IMG/VR virus record: IMGVR_UViG_3300021168_000016
Coordinates: 1 to 64,000 of that record
Reading direction: 5' to 3' (one strand)
Length of the DNA: 64,000 bases
Source of the DNA: a virus
The notes under the pieces were generated by a model that was not told where the DNA came from, made no database searches, and was given only the letters and a program-made list of their open reading frames with translations. The position numbers and the translations under genes are program-made. Shown here piece by piece: positions 50,336-62,863 of this stretch. Every line of letters starts with the position of its first letter. Positions within the stretch are counted from its first letter, which is position 1.

Positions 50336-51022
50336 TTAACCTTTCTTCTGTATCACAAAAGACATGGAATCATTTTCTTTATAAAGATCTTCTCCACAAG
50401 AACACTTGAGTCTAGCATAATCAAACTGATCGCCTCCACATTTCCAGCAGCGCAGTGGTAAGTGAGAACGTCTAATCATATGAAGATCTTCGATTGAATA
50501 GAATAGCTCAGCAATCTCCTTTCCTGTGAAGTAGTAATCAAGGGATTCCTGGATATGCTTTGTAGGATGTTCTCCCGTAGACTTAAGATGCTTGATCATC
50601 AGCAGTACGTGAAAGATTGTAGGAGAACCTAATCTTATAAAGGATGCGTGGATATCCTCTACGATGTAGAAGCCACCCTTCCTTACATGAGGGAATCCCT
50701 CGAGTAGACAGATAGCCTGATGCTCTGGTTGATGACTGCCGTCATCGATTATCAGATCAAACTTAATGTCTAATCGTTGGAACATCTCCCTTACTTCTAG
50801 TCGCTTCCCTTGATCCTGATGTAAATAGATAAATCTAGGATCCTTGATTGCATCAAATATCCCGAAGATATCAACACCTAATACATCAGCATGAGGAAAG
50901 CGTTCTAGAAGGAATCGTATCGAAGCTCCTTGGAGCACACCGAATTCAAGGATATTCTTTGGTGGATCGATACGGGTGAATATGAGTCTCTCATAATCAC
51001 CCATGTACTGATGCCAGTACAC
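50336..51022 (-). CDS. Class I SAM-dependent methyltransferase
   Basis: ILEFGVLQGASI..GVDI..DQG..FDLIIDDGSH..GGFYIVEDI. Confidence 0.88.
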   Translation of the reverse strand: MYWHQYMGDYERLIFTRIDPPKNILEFGVLQGASIRFLLERFPHADVLGVDIFGIFDAIKDPRFIYLHQDQGKRLEVREMFQRLDIKFDLIIDDGSHQPEHQAICLLEGFPHVRKGGFYIVEDIHASFIRLGSPTIFHVLLMIKHLKSTGEHPTKHIQESLDYYFTGKEIAELFYSIEDLHMIRRSHLPLRCWKCGGDQFDYARLKCSCGEDLYKENDSMSFVIQKKG

Positions 51023-55396: not shown

Positions 55397-55684
55397 ATGC
55401 TAAGGCATTCTCTCGTAGGTATCCTACTTGCTGTCGGCTACACAATACTCTCTCGATATGTACTCCACAGCAAAACTCTCATCATTACATCATTCCTTGG
55501 CTTCCTATTCGGCTGGTTCCTATATGATGTCATTAGGCTGATGATACGTCGTAGGAGGATAAAGATCTGCACACGACCTTTTCCTCACATCTGTAGAGTA
55601 AACGGACCTTGTAACGGTCTCCCAAACGATTCACCCGATGACGTAGATGAATTGAAATCGGATGCTTGGAGAGAGGCAGACTGA
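55397..55684 (+). CDS. Small membrane protein
   Basis: Two TM segments, then CTRPFPHICRVNGPCNGLP. Confidence 0.6.
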   Translation: MLRHSLVGILLAVGYTILSRYVLHSKTLIITSFLGFLFGWFLYDVIRLMIRRRRIKICTRPFPHICRVNGPCNGLPNDSPDDVDELKSDAWREAD

Positions 55685-55716
55685 CAGGATTATAAAGAAA
55701 TAAGGGTTATAAAGAA

Positions 55717-55890
55717 ATGAAAGAGGAAATTAGACAAGCATTTGAGGCTTCCTATCCACTAGCTAATTGGGAGATAAAACAGCTCGGTGAGCCTGTAGCT
55801 CGCGCTATCATGGATCAGCATACAAAACGCGAGTGGGAAGCCTTCCAAAAAGGTTGGGAGGCAGCTAAAGAGAGGTTTATAAAGAAATGA
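55717..55890 (+). CDS. 57-aa hypothetical protein
   Basis: Manual translation MKEEIRQAFEASY...WEAFQKGWEAAK. Confidence 0.55.
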   Translation: MKEEIRQAFEASYPLANWEIKQLGEPVARAIMDQHTKREWEAFQKGWEAAKERFIKK

Positions 55891-56060
55891 AAGTATTCTT
55901 GCTTATATTCATTGGAGCTAGCCTATATATCAGTTGGGTGTTCTTCTGGATGGGCAGAAATGTAAATCATAACTGGCCATTTCTCCCATGCTTTATCATG
56001 GGATTTGTCTTCCCAATCTCTCTAGCCATTGCTATAGCAATTAAGCTGACAGGATTATAA
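55887..56060 (+). CDS. 57-aa membrane protein
   Basis: Manual translation MKVFLLIFIGASLYISWVFFW...FIMGFVFPISLAIAIAI. Confidence 0.5.
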   Translation: MKVFLLIFIGASLYISWVFFWMGRNVNHNWPFLPCFIMGFVFPISLAIAIAIKLTGL

Positions 56061-56064
56061 AGAT

Positions 56065-56271
56065 ATGCTAGTTGAAATCACGATTAAAAGAGATGATGGC
56101 ACCGTCGTAATTAAAGCAGGAGGGAATGCTTTCGGTCAGATCGAATGGAGAGCTCCTCTGGATAATGGCTTAATCGATATGCAAGCCAGTAAAGTTCTAC
56201 AGGGATTTGTATTCATCTCTGATTTTACTTATCTAGATGTAGGAGAAATAGAATATGAGACAAGAGATTAA
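56065..56271 (+). CDS. Hypothetical protein
   Basis: ORF in a run of small plus-strand genes. Confidence 0.5.
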   Translation: MLVEITIKRDDGTVVIKAGGNAFGQIEWRAPLDNGLIDMQASKVLQGFVFISDFTYLDVGEIEYETRD

Positions 56272-56812
56272 ATCTTGGATGTATACAGCAGCACATGCTT
56301 GTAAGACGCTAGATAGAGATATGCAGGATCGATTAGGTCGTCAAGCAGACATAGCTGACCTAGCTGTTGTCATAGCTCGTGCCTACTATCAGGAGAATGA
56401 TAGCAATGAAGATTAAAGAAGTTAGATTCATAGAGGGTTAGGCATAATCCTTAGGGCAGCAATAGAGTCTCAGAGATTCGTAGCCAAAACTAAAGCAACG
56501 GGTAAGAGATTAGCGATACTAGATGGCCTCTACCAAGTTACTACTTCCTATTTATGTGCAGGATTCGTGATTAAGGATGGGCTGATTACATTCTGTGCTC
56601 CTATCCTAAGGAATAAGCTATCTTATTGGATGTCGATTGCACAGAGGATAGGAGATTAGAATGTATAAAATACTGGTGATAGTGCTTTATCAAGGGAATG
56701 TAGCTGTGACTACAGTTGGATACGATGAAAGGGATAGAGCAGATATCGCTTACGATAAGATAGCATCTACCAATAACGTCTTCATTGGAGATTTCAAAGT
56801 CATCAAGCTGTA

Positions 56813-57196
56813 TTAGGTCCTTCCCTTCCCTTGATCGTTACAAGCACGATTTCTGATGAATTTAAGACTTCTGCTCTGTATATCATGATAGGCATCAATC
56901 TCAGCAGCAGTCCTTAGATTATCAGCAGCTGAAGGATAGCCCCACTGTGAAGCACGATCACCATCAAAGAAAGGCTTTAGCTCAGGATTACGTTCATAGA
57001 GGACAAGGATAGCTAAACGAACACTAGGTACATGTACAGCGTAATCGATATCATAGAGGACAAATGCTCTACTGAGGTGAGCCTTAACTGTACGTCTAGC
57101 CATATCAAGTGCTTTGCCAATCTGTTGGTTAGAGTATCCTAGAATCAAGAGATTGAGTACCTGTATAGCTCGCGATCCTAGGATTCTTTGTTTCAT
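56813..57196 (-). CDS. LuxR-type HTH regulator
   Basis: LGSRAIQVLNLLILGYSNQQIGKALDMARRTVKAHL. Confidence 0.8.
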   Translation of the reverse strand: MKQRILGSRAIQVLNLLILGYSNQQIGKALDMARRTVKAHLSRAFVLYDIDYAVHVPSVRLAILVLYERNPELKPFFDGDRASQWGYPSAADNLRTAAEIDAYHDIQSRSLKFIRNRACNDQGKGRT

Positions 57197-57280
57197 ACTG
57201 TGTTGACAGTATATAGGTAAGATTCATGTATATATAGGATAAAAGACAGCGGTATATAAAGAATAGGAGGAATATAGAAT

Positions 57281-57709
57281 ATGCCACTAATCGCGAAGCA
57301 AAAAGAAAGAAGTATGAGTCCGCAGAAAGCTACAGCCATCACCTTGAAGATGCAAGGACTTACATATGAAGAAGTAGCGGAAAGAATGAACTGCACTCCT
57401 GCAAATGTTTCGCAATTGTGTCGGCCATCTAAGAACATTGCTTGGGAACTCAAAAGGAAAGCTAAATTCAGATGTCAGCACTGTAATACACCGATAAGAA
57501 CTGGGCATGTCCATCATATTGATTACAACGTTTCAATAGAGATATTCAATTCTATTTCGAATCTACTGTACTTATGTGATGCATGCCATAGCAAGTTACA
57601 CTGGGAAGGAGAGAAAGGAGTTAAATGGAATAAACAGGAAAGAATTAGATGGAATGAACAGAGGGTAAGAAAAGCAAAGCAACTTTATTATGTTAATAAT
57701 CATTATTAA
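57281..57709 (+). CDS. HTH + HNH endonuclease
   Basis: QGLTYEEVAERMNCTPANVSQL; CQHC..HVHHIDY..N.ISNLLYLCDACHSKLH. Confidence 0.85.
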   Translation: MPLIAKQKERSMSPQKATAITLKMQGLTYEEVAERMNCTPANVSQLCRPSKNIAWELKRKAKFRCQHCNTPIRTGHVHHIDYNVSIEIFNSISNLLYLCDACHSKLHWEGEKGVKWNKQERIRWNEQRVRKAKQLYYVNNHY

Positions 57710-57924
57710 CTTACTTGGGATTATGCAAATCACTTTGCAAAACAAAGAACTTTATAAAAAGGTGTTGAAAACAAAGGTAATTCTCCAGATGCAAAGGGAC
57801 GTGCGATAGGGTAAACTGGTAACGGTGTCCGTCCTGAGCAAAACGCGATGCAAGGCGGGTGGTGGGCCGAGCGCCCCCGCTCGCAAAACCTTCCGTGTCA
57901 ACAAAATTCTAAAGGAGACAATGA

Positions 57925-58062
57925 ATGAAGATACCAACAATAAAAGGTTGGAACAAAGTTCATTTAAACTATCACCGAATGCCGGCAGAAAGGACGGCGG
58001 ACAAACAAACCAAAGTCGACTGGAGAAAGGTAGTCAGGAAACAATTCTACAAATCACGCTAG
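57925..58062 (+). CDS. 45-aa basic peptide
   Basis: AAGGAG 7 nt upstream; MKIPTIKGWNKVHLNYHRMPAERTADKQTKVDWRKVVRKQFYKSR. Confidence 0.5.
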   Translation: MKIPTIKGWNKVHLNYHRMPAERTADKQTKVDWRKVVRKQFYKSR

Positions 58063-59172
58063 ATACGATACGACATAGTGGGGTTGGGATTCTATATTCC
58101 AACCCCAGTTTGATGTATCGCATATACATCAGTGGAGATAGGAATAGCGCGAGCCGGTGGACATCACCTTATACCGGTGGACAGGATGGGATGTCACATT
58201 CCTTCGGGAATGGGGCGCAACAGATAGGACAATCCAGCTATACCGAATTAGACCATAGCAGTCTAATCAACCCATGTGGATCCTATCGCAAACTAACCTC
58301 CTGTGGCCCAAAAATCTACGGTAGCGGCGTTAAAGACTTCAAATTTAACAGCTTACCCAACCCGCTACTATCAAAAGTCGATGCCAGAATCGAAAGACGG
58401 TCGACGGGCGATCAAGACCAAAAGAGAGTGGCACTCCTATCGATAAGGACCCAAAAGCGGAGCAATGGGAAGGCTAGCAGAATATGCGAAATGGCTAGCC
58501 AGACAGTCTTAACAATCAACAAAAATCACTGTCAATTCCCCGCCCGGCGAAGTAGGCATCAAGTTCATATCTATATGAACTTGGTCTAGTCAAGAGGCCA
58601 GAAGCCAATTTGACCCAAACAATCCTTGCTGTATCCCAGGTGTCCATCAACATAGAGTTGAACGGCAGTCATTAAATCAGCGTGACAGGTTGATTTAATG
58701 GTTGCTGTTAAGGAAGACGGGGACGGACAGAGCTTAACTGGATTGGAGTAGGTCATCTGAGGTGAATCTGCAAGGCAGAAGACAACGCGAAGTTGTCGAT
58801 ATTACTGCTCATCAAGATAATACAACTTGATGGCTATGGGTAGACTAGGCGTTATGTCCAAAATCCAACGTCACATGGATTTAGTCCACAAAGACGAGAG
58901 AGAACCGAATGGAGTAGTTACTCCATACGTGAGAGACCCAATTTGTGGTATGTGACGTAAGATTTTGGTGTAGCCGAGGCGCAAATACATCCAGCAAGAG
59001 TCGATAGAGTTGGTAATGTAGTTAACAACGCTAGACCTTGAAATCGCATGTGACATTTCTTGAATAATCGACAGCGGTCTAGTATTTGGAATGTCGATAG
59101 CTAGAGAGAAAGAGACTAATCGATTACATGATTTGGTGGATGGATTTGCTCCTTACGATACACCAAGCTCTT
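58063..59172 (+). ncRNA. Candidate large structured non-coding RNA (~1.1 kb)
   Basis: More than 15 hairpins including CATTCC-TTCG-GGAATG; long-range nested stems; no credible protein. Strand inferred from flanking genes, G.U pairs and tetraloops. Confidence 0.65.
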
Positions 59173-59206
59173 GAAAACAAATCAGATTGTACTGGAGGAT
59201 AACAAT

Positions 59207-59632
59207 ATGAAAACACGGACGGTAGCTGAGTACATCGACAATTGCAGTAGCTGGATAGATTCAGACAAAAAGAAGCATGTGCAAGAACACGTCAAGAAGC
59301 TATGGGAACAATTCTGGCAAATGGCAGGGATAAAGGAAGGCGAAACGATCACAGAAGTTGGCGATTTCGACTGCATGGGATCGCAAGAAGCGGAAATCAA
59401 GGCTAGGAAGATCGCCGGTTGGACAGAATGGCTTGGTGAAGAGTCGACCTTAATCTGGAAAGATGGTCGGCTAGTGGCTGAGGTGATATGCTGCCGAGGG
59501 AGCTGGGACATGGTACTGAATGGAAAGAAGTATTACGAAAGTCTGAGGGAGCCGGTCTGGGTGGAAAGAGAGGTATGGCTGGCCGAAGTCAATGCACGGG
59601 CAGCTCTGTCAGGACTTGACAAATTGTCGTAA
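59207..59632 (+). CDS. Hypothetical early protein
   Basis: Start MKTRTV after repeated CAGATTGTACTGGAGGA. Confidence 0.7.
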   Translation: MKTRTVAEYIDNCSSWIDSDKKKHVQEHVKKLWEQFWQMAGIKEGETITEVGDFDCMGSQEAEIKARKIAGWTEWLGEESTLIWKDGRLVAEVICCRGSWDMVLNGKKYYESLREPVWVEREVWLAEVNARAALSGLDKLS

Positions 59633-59685
59633 TCAGCGACATAGAGTGGATGGCTAACCAGCGTCCACTACTTGATGTTGATTAC
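59629..59685 (+). repeat. Intergenic GACA-stem-UGAUG hairpin (copy 2 of 5)
   Basis: Related copies at 58066-58120, 61445-61497, 62781-62841, 63094-63157. Confidence 0.7.
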
Positions 59686-59709
59686 AAACAGATTGTATTG
59701 GAGGATAAC

Positions 59710-59988
59710 ATGGCAGGCAGATTCGTTAGTCCCGATGAAATGCTCCGGGCTGCTAAAGACATGCAGCTTGAGGGTCGTGAACCAATCACAACTCGTGATT
59801 GGCAGCTGATAATCAACTTCATAGCTGCTAACACAGCAGATGGTCTTGAGAAGGCTGTCTGCAAGATGGCCAAACTGATATACAGCATCCCACTCAGCGA
59901 TTCAGACATAGAAGAAATTGCTGTATTCCAGCACAATCACAAGAATCCTTCAAGCCCGGAAGACGAAATGGAAAGGGCAAGGAGATAG
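59710..59988 (+). CDS. Hypothetical early protein
   Basis: Start MAGRFV after CAGATTGTATTGGAGGA. Confidence 0.7.
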   Translation: MAGRFVSPDEMLRAAKDMQLEGREPITTRDWQLIINFIAANTADGLEKAVCKMAKLIYSIPLSDSDIEEIAVFQHNHKNPSSPEDEMERARR

Positions 59989-59990
59989 AG

Positions 59991-60512
59991 ATGGCGCGCG
60001 GATATAACCCGCAGCGGTTGACAATGACGGAAAGATTGGCTTTCTCGATGTCTAAGGACAAGAAGAAGGTCATATCTTTCCGTCACTCAAACAAAGGATG
60101 TCTGCCGTGGCAACGACATTTAGTTGTCACGTCATTTGCCAAGCAGAAAGAGAAGCCAACGGAGAGGAAAGTAATCCTCCCAATCAAGACAGGAGATAAG
60201 GTCCTGCATTCAGCTGGCGGGATAGGATTTGTGAGGAAAGTTGACAGCCGCGGAATCTGGGTGAACATGGATCCGAAGCATGGCGACAACCTATTCAACC
60301 ATAATCAAGTCTGCCGCCAATGTAAGATGATATTCGCGTCAGCAGACATTAATCGACTACATCGAGAGCATGGTCATAGACGTGAATATCCATACGTCAC
60401 ACAATCGCGGAAGATTAGCAAGAGCGAAGAAAGATATATGGAAGCCAAGGAAAGACGGACAGTCGCGCAATATGTTGGCGACAATCGGGAATTGATTCAG
60501 GTCGAGGAGTAA
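59991..60512 (+). CDS. Hypothetical basic protein (SH3-like segment)
   Basis: IKTGDKVLHSAGGIGFVRKVDSRGIWV. Confidence 0.6.
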   Translation: MARGYNPQRLTMTERLAFSMSKDKKKVISFRHSNKGCLPWQRHLVVTSFAKQKEKPTERKVILPIKTGDKVLHSAGGIGFVRKVDSRGIWVNMDPKHGDNLFNHNQVCRQCKMIFASADINRLHREHGHRREYPYVTQSRKISKSEERYMEAKERRTVAQYVGDNRELIQVEE

Positions 60513-60542
60513 AATTCAATCAGATTGTACTGGAGGAACAAA

Positions 60543-61226
60543 ATGGCAACACGAAGGCAATTTGGGAAGTTAGTCGCGGGAGCGATAAGCACATCGCTAC
60601 TACCGAAGTCCAGCGAAAGTCAACCAGCAAAAGTGGTAACTCCAAAGGCGCCAGTTGTTGGGCAGAACAAACTCACAGTTGATTTGACCTTCAAGACAAT
60701 TGAAGAGACTGGCTACGATTCTCACTTCATGGGAGTTGAGGTAAATGGAGTCCATGTCATCCCTGAAAGATTTGATGGGCACGAGACTGTACATCTACAG
60801 GAGCTTCCAGACAGCGAAGTCTTCCTGGTCAGACAGTCCAAGGATGATGGTAGCAATTGGCAGCGAGCTTCAGAGATTGTAACTGGTGTCCCCTGTGATG
60901 GAATGTATACAGCCAACGAAGATGATATCAACTTCGCACGAATTGAAATCATGACTGGGATGCCAACAGACGATGTGATTGTCTCCCGATTGTGGATGAT
61001 TGGCGACGGCTATCTAGCAGTTGTCAGCGGCTGCGTCGGTTATAGAATTGGCGAGCACATCGTCAAAGACGCCTTAGCATGGTGCGAAATGTCACATGGG
61101 ACAGATGGATTCTTAATCGCGCATGTCAGCTTCACGCGGACAATCGCGGATTGGAAGCAGGTAATTGAAGAGTTGGGAGACATCTACCCAGCCGTGAAAG
61201 GTAGTTCAGACAACTTTGGCTGGTAG
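60543..61226 (+). CDS. Hypothetical protein with twin-arginine-like N-terminus
   Basis: MATRRQFGKLVAGAISTSLLP after the repeated RBS. Confidence 0.65.
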   Translation: MATRRQFGKLVAGAISTSLLPKSSESQPAKVVTPKAPVVGQNKLTVDLTFKTIEETGYDSHFMGVEVNGVHVIPERFDGHETVHLQELPDSEVFLVRQSKDDGSNWQRASEIVTGVPCDGMYTANEDDINFARIEIMTGMPTDDVIVSRLWMIGDGYLAVVSGCVGYRIGEHIVKDALAWCEMSHGTDGFLIAHVSFTRTIADWKQVIEELGDIYPAVKGSSDNFGW

Positions 61227-61235
61227 GGAGTCAAT

Positions 61236-61445
61236 ATGAAAGTCAAGGAGTTAATCAAGCATCTCGAAGCCATTGACAACAATGACTTAGAAGTCGTTCT
61301 TGTCAGTGACGTAGAAGCATCTCCGGAAGTAATTAAGCAGCCTGAGATGTCCCATGAATTCCACCATCGTGAAGAAAAGATTATATTTGTCGGATTTACT
61401 GACAAAGCAGTCTTCATTCACGCCGAAGCTCACGCGATTTATTAA
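61236..61445 (+). CDS. Small phage protein (MKVKELI type)
   Basis: MKVKELIKHLEAID..DLEVV; RBS GGGAG. Confidence 0.7.
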   Translation: MKVKELIKHLEAIDNNDLEVVLVSDVEASPEVIKQPEMSHEFHHREEKIIFVGFTDKAVFIHAEAHAIY

Positions 61446-61522
61446 TCAGCGACATAGAGTAGACAAACGTGACAGTTGTCTACTCTTTGATGTTGATATA
61501 AATCAATCAGATAGGAGATGTT

Positions 61523-62780: not shown

Positions 62781-62863
62781 AACATCTGCGACATAGATCA
62801 GCCAGTCTGATATAGGCTGGCTGATGTTTGTTTCATGTGTTAAATCCAATAGAGGAGTTGTAA

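Follow-up and report, generated by a model that had tools for sequence, protein, structure and literature searches.

Among the large structured RNAs described so far, ROOL and GOLLD are ornate RNAs that are often carried by phages and prophages, with tRNA genes as frequent neighbours in phages, and that assemble as RNA-only homo-oligomers. To our knowledge, very few large structured phage RNAs are known, and their function is unknown. Structured regulatory RNAs that also carry a translated frame, such as RNAIII/hld and SgrS/SgrT, have frames of 26-43 codons within RNAs of 200-500 nt. Early transcripts of T7-like phages are processed by RNase III, and rRNA precursors have ends that pair with each other. 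A cryo-EM paper has ROOL and GOLLD RNAs as its subject (PMC12286853).

The candidate RNA described here lies at 58174-59071 on the + strand of a 64,000-nt stretch of DNA from an uncultivated soil phage (the window, positions 1 to 64,000 of IMG/VR record IMGVR_UViG_3300021168_000016). It resembles ROOL and GOLLD in size class (0.6-0.9 kb), in being phage-carried, in its many helices, in conserved junction-like blocks between variable hairpins and in having no obvious protein partner; it differs from them in matching no Rfam model, in having no tRNA genes nearby and in that half of it falls in a conserved open frame. Like RNAIII/hld and SgrS/SgrT, it would be a structured regulatory RNA with a translated frame, which is putative here; however, this frame, at 222-254 codons, runs across the 5' end of the species found in the sequencing runs. 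A hairpin-punctuated rightward early transcript with mature ends in one helix recalls T7-like early transcripts and rRNA precursors, but the helix does not extend past the ends, therefore trimming fits as well as RNase III cutting, and there is no sequence similarity to any deposited phage. Finally, a structured RNA beside an HNH-domain gene is reminiscent of HEARO and the omega RNA of IscB. IscB, however, combines RuvC and HNH domains in ~400 aa or more, whereas the HNH protein of this locus is 142 aa long, carries an HTH and lacks a RuvC-type domain, and the RNA matches no such model, lies downstream of the HNH gene and is three times longer.

Results

Layout of the locus and contigs from RNA runs

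The features needed to follow the locus are listed below; P0002 is a called protein of 237 aa related to the long open frame.

57281-57709, + strand: upstream neighbour, gene for a 142-aa HTH + HNH endonuclease (Pfam Sigma70_r4_2 1.5e-6, HNH 9.2e-6)
57825-58589, + strand: 254-codon open frame (222 codons from ATG 57921), open in the relative, atypical for a gene
57925-58062, + strand: 45-codon ORF for a basic peptide, GGAG at 57914-57917, 7 nt ahead of its ATG
58066-58120, + strand: terminator-like hairpin, 12 bp at 58079-58107 in the terminator scan, extended by 58066-72 x 58114-20
58174-59071, + strand (inferred): RNA as seen in run X2, a single 898-nt contig (record 1, 0 other letters)
58175-58199, + strand: closing helix, 5' strand, pairs with 59048-59070 and spans an AGGA and the in-frame ATG 58191
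59048-59070, + strand: closing helix, 3' strand, pairs with 58175-58199

The original prediction had drawn one RNA over 58063-59172, the largest gene-poor stretch of the window. These limits need revision: 58063-58173 contains the terminator-like hairpin after the 45-codon gene, and the RNA seen in the runs starts at 58174. The stretch ranks as the largest gene-poor one only when the 254-codon frame is ignored and ORFs of 60-80 aa are taken into account; if the frame is treated as a gene, the ORF-free part is 58590-59170 (581 nt).

Part of the stretch was listed for 13 runs, ten of which are soil metatranscriptomes, and runs X2, X3 and X4 contain 0.50-0.58 of its words. The comparison of contigs took in four RNA runs (X2, X3, X4 and X6). 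Record 2 of run X3 spans 58174-58854 and begins, with no loose end, at the same base as the X2 contig, a shared start base in two runs being a weak hint; records 7 and 9 of run X4 span 58420-59045, and records 13 and 14 of run X6 also cover part of the RNA. Word depth in X4 was 124-163 on the contigs at 58420-59045 versus 2-3.6 on the flanking genes, a measure that cannot rank genes. Contigs reveal neither strand, true ends nor level, their ends reflect graph branches, and RNA libraries can contain DNA; the gap at 58074-58173 in the four runs and the uncovered flanking genes in X2, X3 and X6 are evidence neither way. Across 58174-59071 the contigs are colinear with the DNA and the only joints are those of a diverged variant, in a comparison that can miss rare forms.

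A large structured RNA without an Rfam family is supported at this locus, and it is likely a discrete one of a new family, reaching in the runs from 58174 to near 59071, or possibly up to ~59167. The original prediction is partly supported: the locus comprises a small gene, a hairpin and a ~0.9-kb RNA whose 5' half may be translated and whose 3' half (480-580 nt) is free of ORFs. We put at about one in two the probability that 58174-59071 (+ strand) gives rise to a discrete, long-lived and heavily folded RNA of ~0.9 kb that founds, within a small lineage of soil phages, a new family of RNAs; its strand, ends, processing, accumulation and role we infer.

Predicted fold

Folding strength was expressed as z against dinucleotide shuffles, and the stretch folds far better than they do (z about -6). 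For 58063-59062, z was -6.39 on the + strand (0/20 shuffles as good) and -5.65 on the minus strand; for 58174-59071 it was -5.95; for 58590-59071 it was -5.22 on the + strand (0/100 shuffles as good) and -4.92 on the minus strand. Folding this strong also occurs elsewhere in the genome: among 40 control tiles (482 nt, 15 shuffles per tile) the mean z was -1.26 (sd 1.91), one tile (-6.49) lay below the 3' half's -5.22, and five had z <= -4.5. The strand test, in which single G-U and A-C positions between Watson-Crick runs are counted, gave 4 vs 5, which are small counts, and paired probability did not differ clearly between conserved and variable blocks.

Every hairpin named in the original prediction was found in the sequence, about where it had been placed. 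Predicted hairpins, with an alternative 3' one, are listed below:

58197-58202 x 58207-58212, + strand: CATTCC/GGAATG hairpin, read from the sequence
58247-53 x 58261-67, + strand: ATTAGAC/GTCTAAT hairpin, read from the sequence
58472-78 x 58494-58500, + strand: GGCTAGC/GCTAGCC, 7-bp hairpin inside the 254-codon frame (p 0.99)
58560-69 x 58574-83, + strand: CAAGTTCATA/TATGAACTTG hairpin (p 0.97)
58662-81 x 58689-58708, + strand: long arm, a 20-bp hairpin (p 0.98)
58858-58968, + strand: three-tier long hairpin with nested CCAAAATC, CGTCACAT and CCACAAA stems (helices p 0.84-0.98)
58964-59167, + strand: alternative long 3' hairpin, ~28 bp with interruptions, 58964-98 x 59132-67 (p 0.73-1.0)

The GACAAC/GTTGTC and CATCAAG/CTTGATG stems had pair probabilities of 1.0 and 0.98, respectively. 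Two proposed pairings fared less well: the letters of GGTAGCGG/CCGCTACT and of the long-range TGGACATC/GGTGTCCA are present, but these are not the preferred pairings. The 20-bp hairpin at 58662-58708 has three G-U pairs on the + strand, and the minus-strand fold retains just ~10 bp of it.

Conserved blocks and compensatory changes

Diverged variants in the RNA runs share three blocks with the window.

58420-58463, + strand: conserved block a (X4 record 8, 2 other letters)
58583-58671, + strand: conserved block b (X4 record 8, 7 other letters and 2 gaps)
58825-58854, + strand: conserved block c (X3 record 4 shares 30 letters and then diverges; X4 record 8 shares 26)

These near-exact blocks stand beside unalignable segments, which points to selection at the nucleotide level; of the three, two lie outside any ORF. 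After block a, X4 record 8 has 107 unalignable letters in place of 119; the residues of P0002 are identical over 58419-58448, the region of this block. Block b includes the stop codon of the long frame as well as the segment that, of all alternatives, pairs best with the 5' end of the RNA. Behind 58854 both X3 and X4 have loose ends; in that of X4 record 8 the base of the stem at 58858-58968 is retained before the sequence departs, and the interior of this three-tier hairpin differs among variants. One of the five near-identical variants (59015 A>C) would disrupt a predicted base pair, and the variant 58667 A>G (X3, X6) turns an A-U into a G-U pair in the hairpin at 58662-58708.

Covariation could be followed through one relative, the protein P0002, with bases inferred from residues and helices predicted from the window itself; it is indirect, as no homologue DNA was found. 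Eight pairs in predicted helices are changed on both sides in P0002. The residues determine five of these changes completely, and each of the five still permits pairing. The mean compatible fraction was 0.81 versus 0.17-0.50 in eight slid registers, and 3/67 pairs were definitely broken versus 14-24 in six slid registers. In the hairpin at 58472-58500, the pair 58474/58498 changes from C-G to T-A and 58477/58495 from G-C to A-T, both fixed by the residues, and 58473/58499 is compatible; one arm encodes Ile-Asn in place of Ala-Ser, the other Val-Asn.

The 254-codon frame and a possible conventional early mRNA

The 5' 415 nt of the RNA fall within the 254-codon frame, which ends with the stop codon at 58587-58589. 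The overlap had been flagged as a caveat, and it is a real one: a run of at least 254 open codons arose in 0/3000 dinucleotide shuffles, the longest shuffle frame having 200. In P0002 the frame is likewise open, over 237 codons (50% identity over 211 columns), and it is therefore being kept open. From these comparisons, the frame is not a product of chance and appears to be held open by selection. A structured RNA without an Rfam family was correctly foreseen, whereas a non-coding nature over all 1.1 kb is not supported; with half of it in a conserved open frame, the RNA is probably not purely non-coding. The refuting condition named at the outset, codon-type conservation or a lack of covariation, has a divided outcome: the frame is kept open in P0002, yet the helices appear to covary.

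The putative product is nevertheless unlike an ordinary protein because of its atypical codon usage, the lack of a predicted fold and the lack of a family. P0001 and P0002 are the frame's only 2 members among 1.84 billion protein representatives, the protein search found no relatives at shorter lengths, and there was no Pfam or PHROG match. The codon score of the frame is -0.04 versus a minimum of 0.083 in the 56 training genes. Structure prediction gave a pLDDT of 29 (AF2) and 0.27 (Atlas), a low confidence that says nothing firm with a two-row alignment.

The strongest rival is an ordinary early mRNA, which we consider possible, if somewhat unlikely. Here the 222-254-codon frame, or its 132-codon part from ATG 58191, would encode a fast-evolving basic orphan protein, 58590-59170 would be a stabilising 3' untranslated or intercistronic region, and the abundant species would be a decay-resistant fragment without a role of its own. 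The highly non-random frame retained in P0002 speaks for this, as do the conserved Cys and His residues and the replacements between the window and P0002, which are more conservative than random base changes would produce (mean BLOSUM62 -0.45 vs -0.91, z 3.3, inflated by alignment bias). Low codon scores are found in the neighbouring early genes too (0.02-0.10), other early intergenic spots of the genome fold strongly as well, and orphan proteins with two-row alignments often have no confident model. Against a plain message, the contigs of two runs start inside the frame, at 58174; ATG 57921 follows its GGAG with a spacer of just 3 nt and is not kept in P0002; and the visible single-step changes in 58174-58589 fall 8, 13 and 5 times at codon positions 1, 2 and 3, which is not coding-like. 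Apparent covariation of helices within the frame is not predicted by a pure protein constraint, and blocks b and c of the ORF-free part are nearly exact among diverged variants.

The 45-codon ORF is probably the real gene of its stretch. Within 57921-58062, 11 of the 17 single-step differences from P0002 fall at position 1 of the long frame, the wobble position of the short ORF, versus 9 at position 1 and 18 at position 2 elsewhere; the protein search found no called homologue of the 45-aa product. A -1 frameshift from this ORF into the long frame found no support: T-TTA-AAC at 57963-57969 is in phase, but P0002 has Leu-Gln for the window's Phe-Lys and no other homopolymer-codon pair in that stretch. 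The terminator-like hairpin that follows has pair probabilities of 0.99 and 0.79; in P0002 two of its pairs are double-changed and compatible, two are kept as G-U and two are broken, with an indel nearby.

Ends of the RNA and a possible stored message

The two ends of the RNA are predicted to pair with each other in three segments: 58175-78/59067-70 (p 0.96), 58182-86/59058-62 (p 0.85) and 58190-99/59048-57 (p 0.91). Their duplex has an energy of -20.0 kcal/mol, matched by 0.89% of 4848 random window pairs, and the best partner of the 3' end among 1240 start positions in 57710-58950 is 58171-58174. The 5' 30 nt have a stronger partner at 58620-58627 (-25 kcal/mol, the best alternative, in the region 58620-58650). 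The closing helix disappears once 57900-59300 is folded as one; that fold predicts the hairpin at 58964-59167, which, as modelled, is a rival of the closing helix in the unprocessed transcript. Around 58104-58197 there was no recurrent promoter motif (16-mers of 57710-59206, <=2 mismatches, 125-kb genome), and a sigma-70 scan gave 5 sites vs 7.1 expected.

As the predicted closing helix would bury the AGGA and ATG at 58183-58193, the RNA might be a silent stored mRNA, an inert 132-codon message that builds up and is later activated by 3' trimming. The fold-back of hok mRNA hides a translation start in a similar way. Although the pairing of the AGGA/ATG segments and ends flush with the helix suit this idea, we regard it as improbable: ATG 58191 has no aligned Met in P0002, the product would be large, hydrophilic and unlike known type I toxins, there was no sign of an antisense partner, and the helix is lost in the longer fold.

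Known families, homologues and a possible mobile unit

Rfam gave 0 matches at gathering scores in the whole window. At E up to 10, 57600-59300 gave five matches, all far under gathering scores, with GOLLD and ROOL absent among them. No Rfam model of tmRNA, RNase P RNA, 6S RNA or phi29-type pRNA matched, and ARAGORN found 0 tRNA or tmRNA genes in the 64-kb window. There was no homologue DNA in deposited phages (blastn), and no related loci were found in viral, metagenome and genome contigs queried with the frame, the downstream gene, the terminase and alignment A1. DNA-pattern searches for relatives of the locus gave 0 matches. A match in a Bacteroidales MAG was discarded as chance: it sits inside a 220-aa ORF, the rest of that locus is unlike, and ~1 chance match of a 20-mer is expected (estimate) in that MAG collection. 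Reading TGA as W or TAG as Q opened no convincing gene in 58590-59206. In the accessible part of the literature on large phage and soil RNAs, GOLLD and ROOL, no description of the RNA at 58174-59071 was found.

The 142-aa HTH-HNH gene matches several PHROG HNH families and is context only for the RNA. Its position directly upstream, together with an 11-nt direct repeat at 57764 and 59170, could point to a mobile unit, be it a self-splicing intron or a different RNA-containing element that travels with the homing endonuclease. This is very unlikely: no group I, group II, HEARO or ribozyme model is matched even with E relaxed to 10, the RNA contigs follow the DNA without joints other than those of diverged variants, and there was no sign of a split host gene. 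The repeat motif occurs a third time, at 64982, which suggests a regulatory motif; ~98 such 16-mer matches are expected by chance (estimate).

Discussion

That the contigs come from carried-in DNA or assembly breaks, and the hairpins from the general hairpin richness of the early region, is very unlikely: DNA can occur in RNA libraries, contig ends reflect graph branches and control tiles attain similar z, but the depth contrast in X4 is between the RNA and neighbouring genes of the same phage, the two ends of the contig are complementary, and several diverged variants of the stretch occur in the RNA runs.

For the discrete ~0.9-kb RNA, the following course of events may be proposed. Rightward early transcription would pass through the 45-codon gene and the terminator-like hairpin, and the RNA would then be cut or trimmed back to the base of the helix formed by its own ends (58175-58199 x 59048-59070). 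It would accumulate because its compact multi-helix fold protects it. Most likely it would work at the RNA level, serving as a scaffold or as a decoy for a host or phage factor, the type of role considered for ROOL and GOLLD. As the frame appears to be kept open by selection, the precursor would probably also be read by ribosomes, making it a dual-use RNA.

A bolder version, which we regard as doubtful, takes the whole ~1.3-kb transcript as a dual-use module that yields a basic, fold-less protein of ~220 aa, a 45-aa peptide and a processed, nuclease-resistant, closed 0.9-kb RNA, possibly bound by the protein in cis. If true, phages would have a ribonucleoprotein or RNA particle of a new kind, produced as infection begins and without a relative among known RNA or protein families. 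If the RNA is merely the stable 3' part of an orphan mRNA, its interest would be modest.

The candidate RNA has RNA-level support from environmental data, a defined size and testable ends. With a long conserved open frame that passes through apparently covarying helices, it would be a concrete case of coding and folding sharing one sequence, and structural studies of natural RNA assemblies would gain a new target.

The locus and its neighbourhood

The virus record is linear, 125 kb long and of an estimated completeness of 87%, with the window taking up its first 64 kb, and its terminase relatives among deposited phages are distant (identity at most 35%). The minus strand carries late genes up to about 53.9 kb, and small rightward genes run from about 54.7 kb. 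The features in and around the locus (58063-59172) are:

56813-57196, leftward: LuxR-type HTH gene, directly upstream of the locus
57281-57709, rightward: HTH-HNH endonuclease gene (142 aa), directly upstream of the locus
57825-58589: long open frame of 254 codons (259 codons between stops)
57925-58062: small ORF of 45 codons
58079-58107: terminator-like 12-bp hairpin after the small ORF (terminator scan)
58174-59071: stretch found in RNA libraries
58175-78/59067-70, 58182-86/59058-62, 58190-99/59048-57: segments of a predicted closing helix (p 0.85-0.96)
59207: start of the next convincing gene downstream (ORF list)

Several motifs recur in this region. A 27-nt motif including the ribosome-binding site (AATCAGATTGTACTGGAGGATAACAAT and variants) lies at 59180-59206, 59686-59712 and 60518-60544, and also at genome position 65340; it stands ahead of at least three consecutive early genes and may act as a common translational operator or as a processing site. 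A 21-23-nt motif (TAATCAGCGACATAGAGT...) is found directly 3' of early-gene stop codons (59630-59652, 61443-61465, 62784-62804), and fold z values as low as -5.6 occur in 200-nt windows near 59600-60200 and 61300-61500. Three to four CTGACAGGATTATAAAGAAAT-like units spaced by ~180 nt precede very small ORFs (51-68 aa) in 55681-56071. Three copies of TTGAAAACA(A/T)A have similar flanks and are followed by no second sigma-70-like hexamer (window 57764-57774 and 59170-59180, genome 64988); the two window copies flank the whole 1.4-kb unit. The segment 57795-57900, ahead of the small ORF, is G+C-rich with possible stems, a fold z of only -0.7 to -1.7 and no Rfam match.

Folding of the locus

The original prediction described a structured, probably non-coding RNA of ~1.1 kb, and all hairpins it listed were found in the sequence. 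The folding energy of 58063-59062 (-321 kcal/mol) was better than that of all 20 shuffles (-271 ± 8 kcal/mol; z -6.4), with z -5.7 for the minus strand. For the ORF-free part, 58590-59071, z was -5.2 on the plus strand, where none of 100 shuffles folded equally well, and -4.9 on the minus strand. Control tiles from across the genome, 40 in number and 482 nt each, had a mean z of -1.26 (sd 1.91); one folded below this part (z -6.49) and five reached -4.5 or lower; tiles starting at 50600, 84700, 90900 and 35100 (z -6.5 to -4.5) are comparable with the locus. When the early region was scanned in 200-nt steps, several intergenic spots folded equally strongly. The strong folding is real, yet not unique within the genome.

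The suggested Rfam comparison yielded no family at gathering scores, and the five matches at E up to 10 were all far under theirs. Membership in GOLLD, ROOL, HEARO, self-splicing introns, tmRNA, RNase P, 6S and pRNA was thus ruled out, tmRNA also by a tRNA/tmRNA scan that found neither.

Presence in RNA libraries and diverged variants

A word search of public runs with the stretch listed 13 holders, 10 of them soil metatranscriptomes, of which three held half or more of the words. Contigs of four RNA runs (X2, X3, X4 and X6) were placed on 55500-61500. A single 898-nt contig of X2 equals 58174-59071 without a difference, and an X3 contig over 58174-58854 shares this first base and has no loose end there; X6 contigs cover 58189-58417 and 58599-58898. 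These contigs are good evidence for the stretch in RNA libraries. Word depth in X4 was 163 for the contig 58420-58563 and 124 for 58534-59045, and 2-3.6 for contigs on neighbouring genes (57873-58073, 59700-60354); since contig depth is unfit for ranking genes and RNA libraries may contain DNA, we take these values as a hint that the RNA accumulates. Contigs reveal neither strand nor true ends, so the shared first base hints only weakly that a 5' end lies at 58174.

The same runs also contain diverged variants. One X4 contig differs from 58420-58463 (block a) at two positions, continues with 107 unalignable letters where the window has 119, matches 58583-58671 (block b) with seven differences and two gaps, and matches once more over 26 letters up to 58854. 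An X3 contig is identical over 58825-58854 (block c, 30 letters) and diverges afterwards. Blocks b and c are both in ORF-free sequence. Such near-exact short blocks adjoining unalignable segments indicate that constraint acts on the nucleotides of the locus. Searches of viral, metagenome and genome contigs for DNA of relatives gave nothing beyond a chance match.

Folding of 58174-59071 by itself brought the 25 nt at each end together in an interrupted 19-bp helix. The terminal 30 nt on either side give a duplex energy of -20.0 kcal/mol, which just 0.89% of 4848 random window pairs reached, and among 1240 start positions the 3' end paired best with 58171-58174. Because an assembler has no reason to break at both feet of one helix, the predicted pairing supports a discrete, trimmed RNA molecule. 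The 5' end pairs still better with block b (-25 kcal/mol), and in the fold of 57900-59300 a long hairpin (58964-98/59132-67) replaces the closing helix, which would therefore form only once the 3' part is cut off.

Coding potential and covariation

The longest open run in 3000 dinucleotide shuffles of 57710-59206 was 200 codons, and 254 was never reached; the other two frames contain 7-9 stops per sub-region, matching expectation, and the long frame's own phase has 11 stops within 58590-59071. Among 5.8 billion clustered proteins there was a single relative, P0002, which has 237 aa, is encoded on a 1719-nt contig and is identical in 106 of 211 columns with 24 gap columns; searching 1.84 billion representatives with a profile added no members. 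Residues that differ between the long frame and P0002 are exchanged more conservatively than random base changes would give (mean BLOSUM62 -0.45 vs -0.91 ± 0.14), a comparison biased upward by the aligner. The long frame is being kept open, so that the 5' half of the RNA cannot be called non-coding.

As a gene, the long frame is odd. It scores -0.04 for codon usage, lower than any of the 56 training genes (mean 0.32, minimum 0.083) and lower than the 10th percentile for 64 other ORFs, which is 0.074. Low scores (0.02-0.30) are also seen in the early genes nearby. Base use across codon positions is nearly flat, except that T is scarce at position 1. With a pI of 9.9 and a GRAVY of -0.79, the predicted product is basic and hydrophilic; it is modelled poorly (AlphaFold2 pLDDT 29; Atlas model 0.27), and has no structural look-alike and no Pfam or PHROG family. 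An orphan mRNA whose 3' region stabilises the message is a possible but less probable reading of the locus.

We think that the small ORF is the gene of its stretch, because of its start, its substitution pattern and the terminator-like hairpin downstream. A GGAG stands 7 nt before its ATG (57925) and 3 nt before that of the long frame (57921). Within 57921-58062, P0002 shows 17 single-step differences, 11 of them at long-frame position 1, the wobble position of the small ORF; elsewhere, 9 fall at position 1 and 18 at position 2. P0002 has Lys-Tyr in place of Met-Asn at 57921, so this start is not kept, and its bases, as read back from residues, would still allow the second ATG. A T-TTA-AAC heptamer (57963-57969) has the phase needed to shift by -1 out of the small ORF into the long frame; it is not conserved in P0002.

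Bases permitted by P0002 residues were mapped on 10 high-probability helices within aligned codons. Among 67 ungapped pairs, three were definitely broken, 15 changed compatibly on one side and eight on both; six registers slid by 1-3 places gave 14-24 broken pairs and 1-4 compatible double changes, a control biased because the helices came from the window itself. By a fairer measure, the pairing-capable share of allowed base combinations in double-changed pairs was 0.81 vs 0.17-0.50 in eight slid registers. All five double changes fully fixed by residues pair (chance ~0.375^5 = 0.007 by our own arithmetic). The clearest hairpin, 58472-78/58494-500, shows C-G to U-A and G-C to A-U with a third compatible pair, through Ala-Ser to Ile-Asn on one arm and Val-Asn on the other, in an ungapped alignment anchored on both sides by identical residues. 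Four whole hairpins (58197-58212, 58223-58287) fall within the 13- and 6-residue gaps of P0002, as variable peripheral stems would. This comparison, made with one relative whose bases are deduced from residues, points indirectly to RNA structure under selection inside the long frame.

Overall interpretation

These observations fit a locus that would consist of a 45-codon gene, a hairpin resembling a terminator, a ~0.9-kb RNA whose ends pair and that contains both conserved blocks and variable hairpins, its 5' 415 nt lying within the frame kept open, and a 3' half of 480-580 nt without an ORF. We give about an even chance (roughly 0.5) to a new structured RNA acting as RNA, the precursor of which is also translated; a silent stored mRNA, a mobile element and an artefact carry smaller weights than the orphan mRNA. 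The earlier suggestion of a new or divergent large RNA holds as regards the lack of an Rfam family and the RNA-library contigs, and is qualified by the possibly coding half and by covariation read through the residues of one relative. No description of the RNA was found in the parts of the literature available to our search.

In size, setting and conservation pattern the ~0.9-kb RNA resembles the large phage RNAs GOLLD and ROOL; unlike them, it has a long open frame and a closing helix. We know of no established function for either of the two, and by analogy with them the RNA may serve as a scaffold or decoy.
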